Shown here: positions 1,932 to 41,391 of the stretch, piece after piece
Layout: each line of letters starts with the position of its first letter
Numbering within the stretch: the first letter of the stretch is position 1
From: a virus
DNA length: 58,116 nucleotides
Strand: one strand, 5' to 3'
UHGV virus genome: UHGV-0195737
Program-made: the position numbers and the translations under genes
Notes under the pieces: generated by a model
What the model was told of the DNA's origin: nothing
The model's database searches: none
What the model saw: the letters and a program-made list of their open reading frames with translations, nothing else

Positions 1932-4900
1932 TTAAACCTTTTCGAATAATTGCCCGTCGGTTAGCGCTTTGTGCCAGATACGGAAATTGCGGATGTGTCC
2001 GAATAAGTGGCGCTCACCTGTTGATGTTTGACCGCCGAATCTGATGTTTTTGTCCTGAGTTACTCCACCGTAAGAACATGTTGCATCTGCAACGGCTACA
2101 CCATTCATGATTACATGGAAAGTATCATCATCTTTAACTACCGCACCAATAATGGCCTTATTTGGCAATACGGAAGCGGCGGCGGAATTGATATAAGCTC
2201 CGTCACTTTTGGATAGAGACATGTAATACTTATCGCTACCACGGTTAACCGCAGCGATAACGCCCTGCCCCGTATTAGCGTTGGCAATATCAAAAACACG
2301 CGGCGCGGCGTTTGGCGCTCTGAACCAGTCCTTGTGAAGCTCGATCAGGAAACTGAACGGAGGACGCGCAAGGTTGTTTTTAGTCGTAATGCTTACTAGA
2401 TCGCTCGCACGGGTAGAAGGAGTTGAACCTGAGCAAATATACGATGATGCATTCGGGCCAAGCTCGACTTGAGGTGTCGCTAGTTCCATGTAGTCGCCGG
2501 ACACGAACGCGCTAACCGGAGCAAGCTGAATTTGTGCAGTAACCAGCGTTACGGTTGATTTATACGTCACCACTGCGCGATTCCATCCGGTGATGTTGTC
2601 TGTTGTTACACTAACAGTGATATTGTCTGCACCGCCGCCTGCTTTCGTTACAGTCATGTCGCTTAGTTTGATATACGCATCACACAGGAATGCCAGGCTG
2701 GAAGTATCTTCACCACCAGCAAAACGGATACGCAACCGGACGTCGCTTGACGAACGAAAACGACAAGAAACCGTGACGTACTGTTCATCGTGCTGAGTAG
2801 TGTCGATAACGTTAGCAGTGATCACTGATGCCATGTTGCAAGCACCAGTACCGCCAACTGCACTGTCGTCGATCACGAATTTTCCGTACAGGAAACCGTA
2901 GCTGTCAGTTTCTGCTGTAGCGGTGATATTAGTTGATCGGCCCCAACTTGCAGGAACGCTACCGTTAATAAAGAAGTTTGTGCGAGTACCTTCAATTAAT
3001 AATCCCTCGCGTTCGAAACGTGGCTCATCAATATCAGCAATGGTTAAAACACCGGATTTATTAATATAAGTCGCAGTGCTGGCGCGGGCGAAGCCCACCA
3101 CTTTATCCGACGGGATGGATGTGGTTTCGTCGTTAACCGTTACTTTCTTATAGCCAGGAGCGAAGCCTGCCAGCATATCAAGTGAATCGTTAAACGGTAT
3201 CCATACGTCAGGAAATGGTGCTTCTTCATGAATAAGTGGATCGGATTCGAATTTAGCCCAATCCGTCCAGGTTTCCAAATTGGCGTAATAGGTGCGCATG
3301 TAATACAAACCCGTCGAATTGTACGGGTAATATAATTGCGTGGCCCCGTTTGTATAGTTGCCGTTTTTCAGTACAACCAGTGCACCACCATATTTGCATG
3401 GGTAATGCAGTTCGGTTGTTGCTTTTGATGATGCGCCCTGCCAGTAAACACCGGAATAAGCGGCGGTAAGCGTATCCAGATCGGTGTCAGCTAGTGAGCT
3501 TTTTTGTTCGTGCATAGCGGCAAGGTTGGTGCGGGCCGTGGCTGCATCGTTTGCACCTGTACCACCATGTGATAAATCAAGCGGAATCCATTTTGATTGA
3601 GTGTCGCTATAACAGCCCCACGATGTTCCAGTAAGCCCTAAACGCATAGATGAATCTGCGTTATATACCCAGGTTTCACTACCCCATTGAGCAAGGCGAT
3701 CTACTTTTAAGTTTTCTCTTGCTTCGTCGACTGTTACAGCCCCTGTGCCGCCCTGTTCAATAGCTAACGCCTTCCAGCAATTATCAACCGGACTGTAATA
3801 ACCCCAGCGGCCCGTCGCGTCGAGCTGAAGATAGCACCCTGCTGTCGAGTCGTCCATAGAATAAACTACTGTCCGATTGCTGCCGCTTTGATTAAATCGA
3901 CTAACCTCATTTTTTCTTGCGTGTCGCGTCCATTGTGGGCCAGTGCTTTCACTCCAACGATAAGTATAAAGCGAGCGTGTCCCCCACCCCTGGAAAATGC
4001 CTGTATATGATGGCGAACCATCGTTTACGCTAATGAAGCCTGTTAGATATGCTTCACCGTCCGCGACGTCTTCGGGCCATCCGGTGACGCCTTCGCGAAT
4101 ACGAATAAAGCCAATGTAAGCGGCGGGATTGCCGGAAATATCGGCGCAATCGCGCGGGGCGTTAGTTAGACCAATGTCACCCAATAACACACCAGAACTA
4201 AGAAAACGCGCCCATTCTGACCATGTGAAAGTTGCCGCATCAAAACTACGAAGATAAAACGAAGCATTATAGTTATAAGGGTAATAAATTTGCGTGCATC
4301 CAGAATCAGTATTAGCACTATTCCCAATCACAACAAGCGCACCCGCATTATTGCACGGATAATGGCGATCAGTAGTAGCTTGCGCGTTGAGTTTTTGGCG
4401 ATAAAAACCGGAATACTCGCCCGTGAGCGTATCCAGATCCGTGTCAGCAAGATCGGTTTTTTGCTCGTACATTACTTGTAAATTTGTGCGGGCTTGTCCG
4501 GCGTTACCGCCGCCCGTACCACCATAATTGATGCCTAACTTAATTGCCCCATCAACTGAATAAGCACCCCACCCCGTATTATTCACGAAGATGTAATTTT
4601 GGCCCACGCCGTCCCATAACTGCGTTTCGCCTGTTGAGTTACTCGTCTGCAATAAGCGGCTTACTTCATCCTTCCGGGCGTGACGTGTCCAGCCGTAAGT
4701 CCCATCGGCATTGTTATACATGTATGTATAAAGTGAGCGCGTGTTAGTTCCCACAAAACAGCCGTTAATGATCAGGCCGTCACCGCGTGCCAGCCAGCCT
4801 ACCAAGTAGACTTCACCGGAAGCGATAGACGGGAAACCCGTTGCGGTCGCCTCTTCCAGACGAACAAAGCCAATATAGGCTGATGGGTTAACTGTGCAAT

Positions 4901-5909
4901 CAGGCCAATCACGGCGATCAGCACCCAGGCCAATAAGAGATAGTGAATCTTCTGATAGTGATTTTGCTTGCTCCATGTAGGTTTTGGCGTTCGCTTCCGA
5001 AAGTGCGGCGGCGGTGGCTGATTCTGCGGCGGCGGCGGCATTAGCTGCAATTTCTTGTTCGTCTTCTGCAACATTGGCGGCGCTTGTTTCGGCAGCAGTG
5101 GCGGCTTCTGTAGCGATGGTGGCTTGTTCGGTTGCTGTGGTCGCTGATTCTGCGGCGTTATTCATCCAGATGTACGCCGTGCCGCGATGATCTTTTGCCT
5201 CTGCGGCGGCGGCCGCGGCGGCGGTGGCTTGTTCGGTCGCTACGGCTGCCTGTTCAGTTGCGACGGTTGCTTGCGCGGCGGCTTCGTCACGGGCCGTTTC
5301 GGTAGCGGTCTGCGCGGTCTGCGCGGCGCTGGCGGCATTAGTGGCGATGGTGGCTTGTTCGGTTGCCGTGGTCGCCTGCGTGGTGGCGGTGGCGGCATGT
5401 TTCCCAGCCAGTACGCTGTAATCTTCTGCGGCATTTTTCGCGGTAATAGCTTCATCCCGCGCGGCGGCGGTTGTTTCAACGTCTGCGGCGGTCGCGGCGG
5501 CGTTGGCGTTTGATTGCGCTGTTTCTGCCTGAATAGCGGCTAACAGTGCTTCAACCTGCGCGGCATCACCATAATTTTTCCAGTATTCGACGGCAGCATA
5601 GATCTCTGATTCTTGTCCGGTGAAATAGCGCAATGCCTCCGCTACGTCCTGGGCCAGCCCGTCAACCGAGATCGAATCGCACAGCAAAATACTGTAAGCA
5701 GTACCCGCCGGAATATCCGGTGATGCTGCCGGGGTTACAGACAATTCCGTTTCACTGACAATTTCAGTGATAGAAAAGATCTGAATGGGGTTACTTTTTA
5801 CGATAACAGTACACCCCACGCGGATCATGGATAGCGGCGCTTTAAAATTCGTACCCGTCCCGGTCAGCGTGTTACCGGATACGGCAATGCTTCCAATGGT
5901 GTAGATCAT
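1932..5909 (-). CDS. Long tail fibre protein, repeat-rich
   Basis: 1325 aa; Ala/Thr/Gln-rich low-complexity segment; two tandem copies of a ~250-aa module (TRHARK-EVSR, HYPC-GALVV-YYPYN). Confidence 0.65.
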   Translation of the reverse strand: MIYTIGSIAVSGNTLTGTGTNFKAPLSMIRVGCTVIVKSNPIQIFSITEIVSETELSVTPAASPDIPAGTAYSILLCDSISVDGLAQDVAEALRYFTGQESEIYAAVEYWKNYGDAAQVEALLAAIQAETAQSNANAAATAADVETTAAARDEAITAKNAAEDYSVLAGKHAATATTQATTATEQATIATNAASAAQTAQTATETARDEAAAQATVATEQAAVATEQATAAAAAAAEAKDHRGTAYIWMNNAAESATTATEQATIATEAATAAETSAANVAEDEQEIAANAAAAAESATAAALSEANAKTYMEQAKSLSEDSLSLIGLGADRRDWPDCTVNPSAYIGFVRLEEATATGFPSIASGEVYLVGWLARGDGLIINGCFVGTNTRSLYTYMYNNADGTYGWTRHARKDEVSRLLQTSNSTGETQLWDGVGQNYIFVNNTGWGAYSVDGAIKLGINYGGTGGGNAGQARTNLQVMYEQKTDLADTDLDTLTGEYSGFYRQKLNAQATTDRHYPCNNAGALVVIGNSANTDSGCTQIYYPYNYNASFYLRSFDAATFTWSEWARFLSSGVLLGDIGLTNAPRDCADISGNPAAYIGFIRIREGVTGWPEDVADGEAYLTGFISVNDGSPSYTGIFQGWGTRSLYTYRWSESTGPQWTRHARKNEVSRFNQSGSNRTVVYSMDDSTAGCYLQLDATGRWGYYSPVDNCWKALAIEQGGTGAVTVDEARENLKVDRLAQWGSETWVYNADSSMRLGLTGTSWGCYSDTQSKWIPLDLSHGGTGANDAATARTNLAAMHEQKSSLADTDLDTLTAAYSGVYWQGASSKATTELHYPCKYGGALVVLKNGNYTNGATQLYYPYNSTGLYYMRTYYANLETWTDWAKFESDPLIHEEAPFPDVWIPFNDSLDMLAGFAPGYKKVTVNDETTSIPSDKVVGFARASTATYINKSGVLTIADIDEPRFEREGLLIEGTRTNFFINGSVPASWGRSTNITATAETDSYGFLYGKFVIDDSAVGGTGACNMASVITANVIDTTQHDEQYVTVSCRFRSSSDVRLRIRFAGGEDTSSLAFLCDAYIKLSDMTVTKAGGGADNITVSVTTDNITGWNRAVVTYKSTVTLVTAQIQLAPVSAFVSGDYMELATPQVELGPNASSYICSGSTPSTRASDLVSITTKNNLARPPFSFLIELHKDWFRAPNAAPRVFDIANANTGQGVIAAVNRGSDKYYMSLSKSDGAYINSAAASVLPNKAIIGAVVKDDDTFHVIMNGVAVADATCSYGGVTQDKNIRFGGQTSTGERHLFGHIRNFRIWHKALTDGQLFEKV
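4990..5520. repeat. GC-rich tandem coding repeats inside fibre gene
   Basis: Repeated GGTGGCTTGTTCGGT-type units encoding AT(E/A)QAT-like repeats. Confidence 0.5.
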
Positions 5910-38556: not shown

Positions 38557-38635
38557 TATACAAAATGGATACGCCCGGACAAGATGAAAAGCGCCATTAT
38601 GTGACGCTCATCACACAATGACGCCATTTTGTAAA
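38557..38635. promoter_or_regulatory. Intergenic element A with CRP-consensus palindrome
   Basis: TACAAAATGG...TGTGACGCTCATCACA...CCATTTTGTA; ~80% identical to element at 42417-42475. Confidence 0.4.
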
Positions 38636-38637
38636 CA

Positions 38638-39402
38638 TCAATCCGGTAAAACACGGTTAAGCGTAGTGCGAGTGATTGCCCGGTCGTTAGCCAGGAATAC
38701 AGCACGGGCAAAGCCGCGCGGCGTTAGTGAGCGGATCATCTTAGTGCGCTTCGACTTTCCGCCCAACTTCGCGTGCTGCTTACTATCTTCCCATTCATCC
38801 GGCATCGGTACAGGCCGGAATAGCGGCTGTTTAAATCCATTCCCACACCAGATACATGTTTTCTTCGTGTAGGCGTCGCGGTCGGCGATGTATTCCGGGA
38901 AAGCAGGATGTTTATCATCTTCCGGCAGGTAGCCACCGTAAGCGCACGGATTAAAGATAAAATCCGGTTTACGCCATAACGTTGACAGTGCGCCTACCGG
39001 ATTTTCCACCATCCACGGGACGTTATACATACTCGCCAGCATTTCTACTAACTTTGCGTTGTACGCTGCTTTCTGCTGAAAGTAAGGATCTTTCTTCCGC
39101 TTATCAGCAAACCAGCGAGCGCCGGATACCGCGAGATCGTCGCACGGAGGAAAGCCCAGGATAATGTCAGGATCTGGATAAACAGACAATTCAGGGGAGA
39201 ACATTACCAGGAAATGGCTGTCAATCCATACGTTAACGTATTCGATATTCGGATGAATGATTTTTACGCCTTCGTAATCGCCGTGATTAGCGCCGTCATA
39301 GTTGAAGCAATAGCACTTATATCCAGCTTCCGCCCAATCCTTAACGGCGTACCCGCTGCCGTCGTACAGCGACCACACAACCCAATTTCTAAGCCCTTTC
39401 AT
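38638..39402 (-). CDS. Atypical C5-cytosine methyltransferase-like protein
   Basis: C5-MTase-like motifs in order: LYDGSGY (I), GFPPCDD (IV-like, PCD not PCQ), ENPVG (VI-like); only 254 aa, no obvious target-recognition domain. Confidence 0.45.
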   Translation of the reverse strand: MKGLRNWVVWSLYDGSGYAVKDWAEAGYKCYCFNYDGANHGDYEGVKIIHPNIEYVNVWIDSHFLVMFSPELSVYPDPDIILGFPPCDDLAVSGARWFADKRKKDPYFQQKAAYNAKLVEMLASMYNVPWMVENPVGALSTLWRKPDFIFNPCAYGGYLPEDDKHPAFPEYIADRDAYTKKTCIWCGNGFKQPLFRPVPMPDEWEDSKQHAKLGGKSKRTKMIRSLTPRGFARAVFLANDRAITRTTLNRVLPD

Positions 39403-39902
39403 TTCCTGCCCTCAAACGTAAAATAGCGGCGCATGATGATAGTAATCACCGTTACCGCTGCCATTTTTGAGATGAATTGCATAGCTGATATTTCCGGCAT
39501 AAATGCCACAAACGATAGCGTAGGAAAAATTAACGCATCACCAATGGCGGACGCTATATTTGCAGGCCAGCGTTTAGAATCGAAATCACCAGGTAAAACC
39601 CGGTAAACGCCGCCAGAAATAAGCGCACCGGAAACAACCGCGACAAACGACGCGATCGCCACCATTCCGGCGTCGTAATTTATCAGCACCGTGATCGCGC
39701 CAGCTATAGCGCATGTTGTAGCCGACCATTTCAGGCCGCCGTCATATAACAGGAAGTCACGGATCATCATATTGACACACACAGCGGCTACCGTGGTGAC
39801 TGGAATTACCCACGGGCCGCAATGGTTAACAATAAGATTGATGATCACAAAAACGGCGACATAAACGCAGGCTAATAACCTGTCAATTGTCACCCTTTTC
39901 AT
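39399..39902 (-). CDS. Multi-pass inner membrane protein
   Basis: 4-5 predicted TM helices; start at internal ATG with SD GAAGGA. Confidence 0.45.
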   Translation of the reverse strand: MKRVTIDRLLACVYVAVFVIINLIVNHCGPWVIPVTTVAAVCVNMMIRDFLLYDGGLKWSATTCAIAGAITVLINYDAGMVAIASFVAVVSGALISGGVYRVLPGDFDSKRWPANIASAIGDALIFPTLSFVAFMPEISAMQFISKMAAVTVITIIMRRYFTFEGRK

Positions 39903-40374
39903 TTTTATGATCCTTCGGTGAATACAATAAAGCCTCTTTATTAAACCGCCAGCCGTTACCAAGCTGGAGGCTACCATTCATTATTACTTCGCCACTAGCG
40001 ATCAGGTCGCCTGGTATCGAGGTTTTTTTACAGCCGCAATTTAACGGCATATCAAAAACAGCCTGTTTCTTACTTTGTTCTTCCTCCCGATCCGTTAATA
40101 TTTGCTCTGCTTTTAGCGCGTTATAGCTAATCAAATCAATCAACGTGTCTGTCGGATCTGTTCCGTTGCTTAAAATGGCCCCTAAACGCGCTTCTTTGAG
40201 GCAAATCAGTAGATCCCATACATCAAGCGGGGTTAAATCGGCTCCCTTCTTAGCGTTGTAAATAGTGGCTATTTTTGGCGCTGATTTTTCCTCTTTTTTG
40301 TCGTAGCCGTTTTGCTTACCTCTTTGCTCTATGGTTTCCGCTGCGAGTCTTAATAAATCTGCTGCCTTAGTCAT
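39883..40374 (-). CDS. Hypothetical protein
   Basis: 163-aa ORF between membrane protein and Dam genes. Confidence 0.4.
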   Translation of the reverse strand: MTKAADLLRLAAETIEQRGKQNGYDKKEEKSAPKIATIYNAKKGADLTPLDVWDLLICLKEARLGAILSNGTDPTDTLIDLISYNALKAEQILTDREEEQSKKQAVFDMPLNCGCKKTSIPGDLIASGEVIMNGSLQLGNGWRFNKEALLYSPKDHKNEKGDN

Positions 40375-40907
40375 TATTCTGCACCTCTTGCATATAGCTC
40401 TTTACGTGTTATCTGCGTGAAAATACATTCATGCCTGCATCGTGGATGCCAGATCAAGAACAAGCTACCCTTATTGTTCCCGCTCGCTGGCTTACCAGTC
40501 GCAGCATTAATAAACGCCAGCCGCCCGCGCGTGATCAAGCGACATTCGTTTGCCGTTTCCAGGCCGTTCATAAACCAGTTAACAGAAATATCAGCGGGCA
40601 ATAACATTACACATCCGATATGATTTTGATGGTGCTCAAGTGCCGCCTTATCAACGAATGGCCCCGGATTAGAATATGGTGGATTCATCCAGACATACTC
40701 ACCAGGCATCGCCACCGCTCCCCACGGATAATGTAGTGTGTTCATTTCTTCGGTTATATATCGCGGAACTAATGCGTTTGCCTTGTTTGCCGCCACATCG
40801 GCGACGAATTCGAATTCCCGATCCATTCCTCTAAATACGGGCTTCGGCGTTTGCCAGAGATCCTTAATTTCCTTCGGCGTGTGGCTGCCGCCGTAATCAT
40901 TTTTCAT
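40374..40907 (-). CDS. DNA N6-adenine methyltransferase (phage Dam-type)
   Basis: 177 aa; NPPY catalytic motif; size typical of small phage Dam family. Confidence 0.7.
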   Translation of the reverse strand: MKNDYGGSHTPKEIKDLWQTPKPVFRGMDREFEFVADVAANKANALVPRYITEEMNTLHYPWGAVAMPGEYVWMNPPYSNPGPFVDKAALEHHQNHIGCVMLLPADISVNWFMNGLETANECRLITRGRLAFINAATGKPASGNNKGSLFLIWHPRCRHECIFTQITRKELYARGAE

Positions 40908-40916
40908 TATACCCCC

Positions 40917-41150
40917 TTAAAAATAATCCTGTTCCGTCCCCCAGCGGTTGTTTAAATACCCCACCAACCACACAAACCGCTCAATACTGATTAGCGGGGC
41001 GACCTTGCGATAATGCCTATCGAGTATCAGCCGCGTGGCTTTATCGCTATAGCCGTTTCTTTCTACCTCCGCTTTGCAGGCAGAAAGCGCCGCGCGGGCA
41101 GCAGTTTTAACGGCGTTAAATTGCGGCTCTGACAGGTTGAATAAAGCCAT
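40917..41150 (-). CDS. Hypothetical protein
   Basis: Start set at internal ATG with SD GGTGA. Confidence 0.35.
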   Translation of the reverse strand: MALFNLSEPQFNAVKTAARAALSACKAEVERNGYSDKATRLILDRHYRKVAPLISIERFVWLVGYLNNRWGTEQDYF

Positions 41151-41154
41151 ATAA

Positions 41155-41391
41155 TCACCACGGATCATCCCAATCAGGTGCGGCAGCCCAACAAAAACCC
41201 ATGAAAACACTAAAAGCGATTAGCACGCGTACACCAAAAAACAATTCCGCCCACGGTCGAATATCAGGAAGCGACCATGTGATAAACATTGCACCGACAA
41301 TCAAAACAGCAATAATGACAGTGCACCCCAGGAAAACAAAAAGCGCGGCTAAAAGCCACGCCCCCAAGAAATGAAACAGTTCTCTTAACAT
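41155..41391 (-). CDS. Small membrane protein (2 TM)
   Basis: 78 aa, two hydrophobic helices. Confidence 0.4.
   Translation of the reverse strand: MLRELFHFLGAWLLAALFVFLGCTVIIAVLIVGAMFITWSLPDIRPWAELFFGVRVLIAFSVFMGFCWAAAPDWDDPW

Follow-up and report, generated by a model that had tools for sequence, protein, structure and literature searches.

Two probable orphan DNA methyltransferases, Dam and a compact Dcm-like C5 enzyme, in the distal delayed-early operon of an mEp021-like coliphage

Introduction

The closest described counterpart of the gene considered here is the Dcm-like C5-cytosine methyltransferase of phage K42, the trigger of retron Ec86. We report a homologous gene at positions 38638–39402 (minus strand) of the UHGV virus genome UHGV-0195737, together with the three genes that precede it within 38638–40907; the whole 58,116 nt stretch of virus DNA is referred to as the window. 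Temperate coliphages of the mEp021/mEpimmI group are relatives of the window: the region is 84–91 % identical to them at the DNA level, with MagusPhagus the nearest. Prophages of this group were found in 35 of 5426 complete Escherichia coli genomes. A preliminary description of the region had proposed a Dam-type adenine methyltransferase and an atypical C5-methyltransferase-like enzyme, possibly forming an anti-restriction module.

Phage K42 is 95.4 % identical to phage Bas06 (10.1101/2023.08.16.553469; Wang et al., Cell Rep 2024;43:114857). Its 711 bp dcm gene is the trigger of retron Ec86; mutations in this gene allow K42 to escape, and expression of K42 Dcm is toxic only if Ec86 is present. 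Expression of the enzyme raises the level of 5-methylcytosine (5mC) in the multicopy single-stranded DNA (msDNA) of Ec86, as measured by liquid chromatography coupled to mass spectrometry (LC-MS), and a C82A/E128A/K175A/K176A mutant is inactive and produces no such rise. An AlphaFold model of K42 Dcm superposes on DNMT3A, and the enzyme is encoded by 34 of 35 Ec86-sensitive phages (10.1101/2023.08.16.553469).

Canonical C5 enzymes carry a target-recognition domain (TRD) as an insertion that follows the last core strand and precedes the last helix (PMC6316889). Another cytosine-modifying enzyme of phages is CmoX (PDB 8yf3), a DNA cytosine C5-carboxymethyltransferase with an SPPC motif, Arg350 and, usually, a linked cmoA gene. 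Phages of the BASEL collection carry homologues of the gene studied here under the label ‘Dcm-like C5 cytosine methyltransferase’, including gp55 of KarlJaspers (Bas06, MZ501090; bas06_0055, 711 bp, 236 amino acids (aa)). In the literature we found nothing specific on phage methyltransferases that lack a TRD or resemble DNMT3.

Our analysis makes it probable that the window encodes two independent orphan methyltransferases, Dam and a compact Dcm-like C5 enzyme that forms 5mC, located in the distal section of an mEp021-like coliphage's delayed-early operon. This interpretation is based on homology, predicted fold, conserved catalytic residues, gene context and operon structure, and purifying selection, all computed here. 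Its 5mC component is drawn from a 60 %-identical homologue that forms 5mC in dependence on the same residues.

Results

A probable compact Dcm-like C5-cytosine methyltransferase

The predicted product of the C5 gene has the following features.

38638–39402, minus strand: putative compact Dcm-like C5-cytosine DNA methyltransferase, 254 aa
Residues 14–17: DGSG (motif I)
Residues 83–89: GFPPCDD, with the predicted catalytic Cys87
Residues 133–135: ENP, with Glu133 (ENPV)
Residues 180–181: Lys180-Lys181
Residues ~188–228: mini-TRD
C-terminal segment: IRSLTPRGFARAVFLAN

On sequence grounds, the protein belongs to the family of compact Dcm-like phage enzymes of the K42/Bas06 gp55 type (PHROG 757). 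It aligned with Bas06 gp55 at 60 % identity over 232 aa (BLASTP, E 7e-101), and matched PHROG 757 ‘DNA methyltransferase’ (phrog_757) at E 3e-88. In the alignment, residues C82, E128, K175 and K176 of the Bas06/K42 enzyme fall opposite C87, E133, K180 and K181 in the window protein and are identically spaced.

The C5 motifs occur in the right order, with GFPPCDD and ENP, just as the preliminary description had them, and these matches are not spurious: a set of 80 diverse representatives of the family shows no variation at Cys87, Glu133, Pro135, Pro152, Tyr178, Trp185 and Pro193. Near-invariant in the same set are Phe84, Pro85, Asn134, Asp176, Lys180 (79/80) and Thr182, together with Arg224, Ser225, Pro228 and Gly230. 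PC(T/D)D, a universal ENP(V), a Lys-Lys pair in place of the motif VIII RxR and a ~40-residue vestige of a TRD are normal for members of the family. The earlier remark that the protein has no obvious TRD was also correct, as only ~40 residues (188–228) separate its last core strand (182–187) from its last helix (229–239). The gene is under purifying selection, with a ratio of non-synonymous to synonymous substitution rates (dN/dS) of 0.05–0.2.

Homologues are widespread. A word-indexed search returned 2400 clusters and an exhaustive search 2126 clusters at 50 % identity (E≤1e-3), nearly all of 210–260 aa; in addition, a homologue is present in 1520 of 50,697 phage genome records, the majority of them from phages of Escherichia, Klebsiella and Salmonella. 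Annotation is inconsistent: depending on the E. coli genome, PGAP labels the gene either ‘hypothetical protein’ or ‘DNA cytosine methyltransferase’. PADLOC returned only weak generic methyltransferase matches.

In structural models, the predicted fold of the window protein is closest to DNMT3. A PDB search with a profile of close relatives gave a marginal DNMT3B match covering motifs I–IV only (E 0.27), and a search with a wider-family profile gave only generic Rossmann/SDR matches.

The compact domain also occurs as part of larger proteins. It is fused to a D12 N6-adenine methyltransferase (563 aa) or an HNH_2 nuclease (348 aa) in proteins P0249 and P0258, and by structural match it lies inside phage proteins of 1100–1400 aa (BFVD A0A6J5SE15, A0A6J5NPY6), one of which is annotated with a helicase/UvrB N-terminal domain. 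The fusions to D12 methyltransferases and within helicase-containing giant proteins fit DNA as the substrate. On two metagenomic contigs (loci L091 and L092), a distant 224 aa family member lies between an HTH_3 gene and an unannotated gene of ~150 aa, a layout that recalls controller–methyltransferase–nuclease cassettes.

A co-transcribed mosaic of four genes

The other features of the region are as follows.

38590–38625, minus strand: terminator-like hairpin, a 16 bp stem followed by a T-run, directly 3′ of the C5 methyltransferase stop codon
39399–39902, minus strand: small membrane protein with six predicted helices, 167 aa, from the start codon ATG 39902
39883–40374, minus strand: DUF6378-domain protein, 163 aa (Pfam PF19905, E 4.5e-7; phrog_9871, phrog_474)
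40374–40907, minus strand: predicted phage Dam-type N6-adenine DNA methyltransferase, 177 aa (PF05869, TIGR01712, phrog_111; NPPY at residues 75–78)

All four open reading frames (ORFs) of the preliminary description are present on the minus strand, and the membrane protein and the 163 aa protein do sit between the two methyltransferase genes, as it said. Dam is followed by DUF6378, the membrane protein, the C5-like gene, NinF, NinG, RusA and Q. Position 40374 is common to the Dam and DUF6378 ORFs; the DUF6378 and membrane ORFs overlap by 20 nt (39883–39902, with the ATG 39902 start), and the membrane and C5-like genes overlap in an ATGA at 39399–39402. The hairpin closes this section of the early operon: TERM_4 of mEp021 is annotated at the equivalent position, and in the mEpimmI paper nutR2 lies just downstream of the C5-like gene. 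Purifying selection acts on all four genes (dN/dS 0.03–0.34).

No restriction-endonuclease domain was found among the neighbours (DUF6378, the membrane protein, NinF/NinG, RusA and Q), and both methyltransferases are therefore orphans and not part of a type II restriction–modification system.

Such an arrangement invites a reading of the four genes as one functional modification module, in which the membrane protein imports a cofactor or precursor for one or both methyltransferases and the DUF6378 protein is an accessory factor. The genes are translationally coupled and co-transcribed, the membrane protein is strongly conserved (dN/dS 0.04–0.10), and the divergent relative L088 (52–64 % protein identity) keeps the order Dam–DUF6378–membrane–C5. 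However, a gene order kept inside a single phage lineage may be due to nothing more than common descent, and the order in L088 could be explained by inheritance. The wider distribution of the C5 gene also speaks against a module. In a sample of 80 viral loci, about 55 hold C5 homologues of 52–61 % identity, and in these the membrane protein was never found within 5 kb of the homologue. Homologues usually occur without the membrane-protein and DUF6378 genes nearby; Dam and DUF6378 genes lie near a C5 homologue in about seven loci. In T7-like Salmonella phages the C5 gene stands by itself, flanked by the ligase gene and gene 2, rV5-like phages also carry it alone, and in phage SSE121 it is alone among replication genes. 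More distant family members are found in other phage contexts, sometimes adjoining a D12 adenine methyltransferase. Moreover, the K42/Bas06 enzyme is active when expressed alone in E. coli, and Bas06 has no membrane-protein neighbour.

A natural deletion points in the same direction. At 4657–5004 of locus L009 (IMG/VR UViG_3300045988_049781), an in-frame deletion joins residues 1–36 of Dam to the membrane protein's C-terminal half. The fusion product (P0278) retains ~79 membrane-protein residues, with its junction at a shared FVA microhomology, and is present on seven contigs. Three genes, Dam, DUF6378 and the membrane protein, are lost by this deletion, which leaves the downstream 254 aa C5 gene intact at 96 % identity. 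Because homologues usually occur without these neighbours and the deletion variant keeps the C5 gene only, the four genes are a co-transcribed mosaic and not an obligate module. Read as a dedicated four-gene unit, the anti-restriction module proposed earlier is not supported by this comparison, since the C5 gene stands alone elsewhere and is the only one that the deletion spares. We regard a single functional module, the import role of which would also depend on a membrane model of moderate confidence (predicted local distance difference test (pLDDT) score of 71), as very unlikely.

The membrane protein, DUF6378 protein and Dam

An upstream in-frame ATG at 39977 would extend the membrane ORF to 39399–39977 (192 aa). 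ATG 39902, the start annotated in mEp021 and MagusPhagus, is more likely to be the real one. The protein is apparently restricted to the mEp021-like lineage (12 clusters among 5.8 billion proteins), where its dN/dS indicates strong purifying selection. Its modelled fold resembles the S-components of energy-coupling factor (ECF) transporters and the Vut family, at the moderate confidence given above, and designed helical bundles match the model equally well. The match to Vut_1 PF02592, at 11 bits, is far below the Pfam cutoff.

The YhhQ/Vut-like appearance prompted us to consider 7-deazaguanine (preQ0) DNA modification, which was rejected on the 11-bit Vut_1 score and on the annotation of a related prophage, where no DpdA/TGT or queuosine-pathway gene appears. 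A compound scenario can also be drawn, in which an S-component- or Vut-like importer (for example, of a methyl-donor precursor) supports methylation and the methyltransferase, relying only on a core like that of DNMT3 and on its ~40-residue TRD remnant, has a target other than the assumed CCWGG; we give it little credence.

The DUF6378 protein has a conserved N-terminal part of ~100 aa and a variable C-terminal part (the L088 version is 99 aa in total), and had no match among PDB sequences. Dam and DUF6378 genes also lie close together in other, unrelated phages (loci L078–L085). Some DUF6378 relatives carry the PHROG label ‘phosphofructokinase’, apparently a misannotation that has been propagated.

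By sequence, the Dam gene is ordinary. The protein gave a full-length match to Pfam PF05869 (E 4.7e-52; 176.5 bits, cutoff 28.1) and scored 142.2 bits against TIGR01712 phage_N6A_met (cutoff 97.05). Its NPPY motif lies within WMNPPYS, and its dN/dS is 0.03–0.07. The identification of 40374–40907 as a small phage Dam is thus upheld by Pfam and TIGRFAM scores above cutoff and by the NPPY motif. The window Dam belongs to the T1/933W class; Dam enzymes of this class are probably GATC-specific, and the same specificity is expected here. Directly upstream of Dam, 40917–41210 (minus strand) encodes a homologue (84–97 % identity) of mEp021 gp29, ipe (‘inducer of pleiotropic effects’).

Target sites in the window and in other carriers

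Neither candidate target is avoided in the window: CCWGG occurs 145 times against 150 expected from a Markov model, and GATC 276 times against 282 (0.98). The k-mer statistics of the window gave no signal on the target of the methyltransferase.

Several 6 bp palindromes are scarce in the 58 kb window. AAGCTT, GGATCC, GGCGCC and GCCGGC each occur zero times (12–23 expected), GATATC once (18 expected) and TCCGGA three times (38 expected); GAATTC is not avoided (19 against 16 expected). This pattern may reflect restriction-site avoidance or an E. coli-like background composition.

Among the T7-like carriers of the C5 gene, L004 and L006 (OR513093, OR485017) have only one GATC in 10.7 kb against 36–42 expected, and CCWGG is similarly depleted there (see below).

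Discussion

Our data are consistent with a model in which Cys87 attacks C6 of a flipped-out cytosine, which would be held by Glu133 of the ENP motif and by Lys180/Lys181, and the methyl group of S-adenosylmethionine (SAM), the presumed cofactor of the window protein, is transferred to C5 to give 5mC. DNA would be recognized through the ~40-residue region 188–228 on the DNMT3-like core, perhaps aided by DNMT3-style oligomerization. Both methyltransferases would be made during lytic growth and would modify replicating phage (and host) DNA. The likeliest benefit is protection from restriction enzymes; a known cost of this type of methyltransferase is the triggering of abortive infection by retron Ec86/Eco1. 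Anti-restriction is a reasonable candidate role for each methyltransferase acting separately.

The observations that weigh against this interpretation concern the sequence of the enzyme and, as set out in the paragraph after this one, its target. The window protein itself matched nothing in Pfam, NCBIfam or the PDB sequences, and it falls short of the PF00145 gathering score, with no match even at E≤10. Among its relatives, 12 of 28 close ones match PF00145 at E≤1, and of six examined three reach 24.7–28.5 bits (cutoff 22), with the matches limited to profile positions 4–94 of 324. Asp88 is a minority variant, with Thr in 71 of the 80 representatives (PC-T-D after the catalytic Cys). The enterobacterial subfamily that includes the window protein has Asn34, Trp59 and an inserted conserved DHGxY...H segment, whereas in the wider family 76 of 80 representatives carry Asp at position 34 and 54 of 80 at position 59, these being the usual contacts to the ribose and adenine of SAM. 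These non-canonical residues, together with a near-invariant Arg224-Ser225 in what is possibly motif X, the site of the carboxylate-binding Arg of CmoX, would suit an enzyme with altered chemistry, such as transfer of a carboxymethyl group from carboxy-SAM (Cx-SAM) supplied by host CmoA, or SAM-free deamination or aldehyde addition. However, Asn34, Trp59 and DHGxY are compatible with ordinary SAM-dependent 5mC formation because the active Bas06/K42 enzyme shares them, and K42 Dcm, of the same subfamily, yields 5mC by LC-MS. The correspondence of Arg224 to the HhaI Asn304 position is itself ambiguous. CmoX-like carboxymethylation was rejected in particular, as the window protein has FPPC and not the CmoX signature SPPC, the annotation of the related prophage includes no cmoA (or amide-ligase) gene, and 5mC is what the homologue produces. 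The preliminary description had raised altered chemistry or substrate on the strength of the odd motifs; these turn out to be the consensus of a large phage family, and a 60 %-identical member of the same subfamily makes ordinary 5mC. Altered chemistry is, in our judgement, extremely unlikely.

With regard to the target, CCWGG was assumed for K42 Dcm from its name and an msDNA stem mutation, and was not mapped (10.1101/2023.08.16.553469). The T7-like carriers L004 and L006 have three CCWGG sites in 10.7 kb against 22–31 expected; being nearly devoid of both CCWGG and GATC, these phages must either have an enzyme with a different target or not use it for self-protection. The BASEL study found the Vequintavirinae and their relatives to be very sensitive to restriction systems, and relatives of this group carry C5 homologues, so that broad protection is not evident. 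Its authors also saw no simple link between methyltransferase genes and restriction resistance in the Drexlerviridae. Together, these findings would favour an enzyme that methylates cytosine with its main role elsewhere, on host DNA, on RNA or tRNA, or in the timing of phage gene expression. Set against this, the sole direct data concern methylation of DNA (the msDNA stem), the neighbours are DNA-metabolism genes and the fusion partners are DNA methyltransferases or helicases, and the true motif may not be CCWGG, which would void the argument from the T7-like phages. A main role other than the protection of phage DNA is unlikely in our view, and we retain the reading of two independent orphan methyltransferases, the C5 enzyme forming 5mC.

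The outcome is mostly a corrected annotation, which assigns a gene of the mEpimmI group to a compact Dcm-like family that is common in enterobacterial phages and experimentally anchored, and which Pfam and NCBIfam miss in the window protein. It also carries a prediction, that in phages of the mEp021 group the C5 gene sets off retron Ec86/Eco1, for example in E. coli B strains.

Comparison with known systems

The window Dam shares the full-length profile (PF05869/TIGR01712) and the NPPY motif of the small phage Dam methyltransferases, from which we found no difference. The membrane protein is below the Pfam cutoff for the ECF S-component/Vut/YhhQ group, and the likeness allows no substrate to be deduced.

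The C5 protein has the predicted C5-methyltransferase fold with the PC (motif IV) and ENV-type (motif VI) motifs in order. Compared with M.HhaI, M.HaeIII and E. coli Dcm, it is ~100–220 residues shorter and lacks a separate small domain. It has neither the motif VIII QxRxR nor a separate TRD/small domain with motif IX; Lys180-Lys181 precede the last core strand, and the C-terminal IRSLTPRGFA motif may correspond to either motif IX or motif X. Unlike canonical type II C5 enzymes, it has no partner restriction enzyme. The catalytic domains of DNMT3A and DNMT3B (PDB 6u8p, 4u7t) are marginally similar in sequence, within the limits of the motif I–IV match described above, and differ from the window protein in that it has no regulatory domains, only a ~40-residue TRD remnant, and Lys-Lys in place of RxR.

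The closest comparison is with Bas06 gp55. The host phages differ, Bas06 being a virulent member of the Drexlerviridae and the window a temperate mEp021-like phage, as do the residues after the catalytic Cys (PCTD in gp55, PCDD in the window). The window protein also has ~15 extra residues at its tail, and a membrane-protein gene, absent from Bas06, precedes its gene. The two proteins nevertheless have in common their size class (236 and 254 aa), the catalytic Cys, Glu and Lys-Lys, the CFNYD, DHGDY and VNVWID segments and a predicted DNMT3-like fold, and both belong to a type of enzyme encoded by a stand-alone phage gene.

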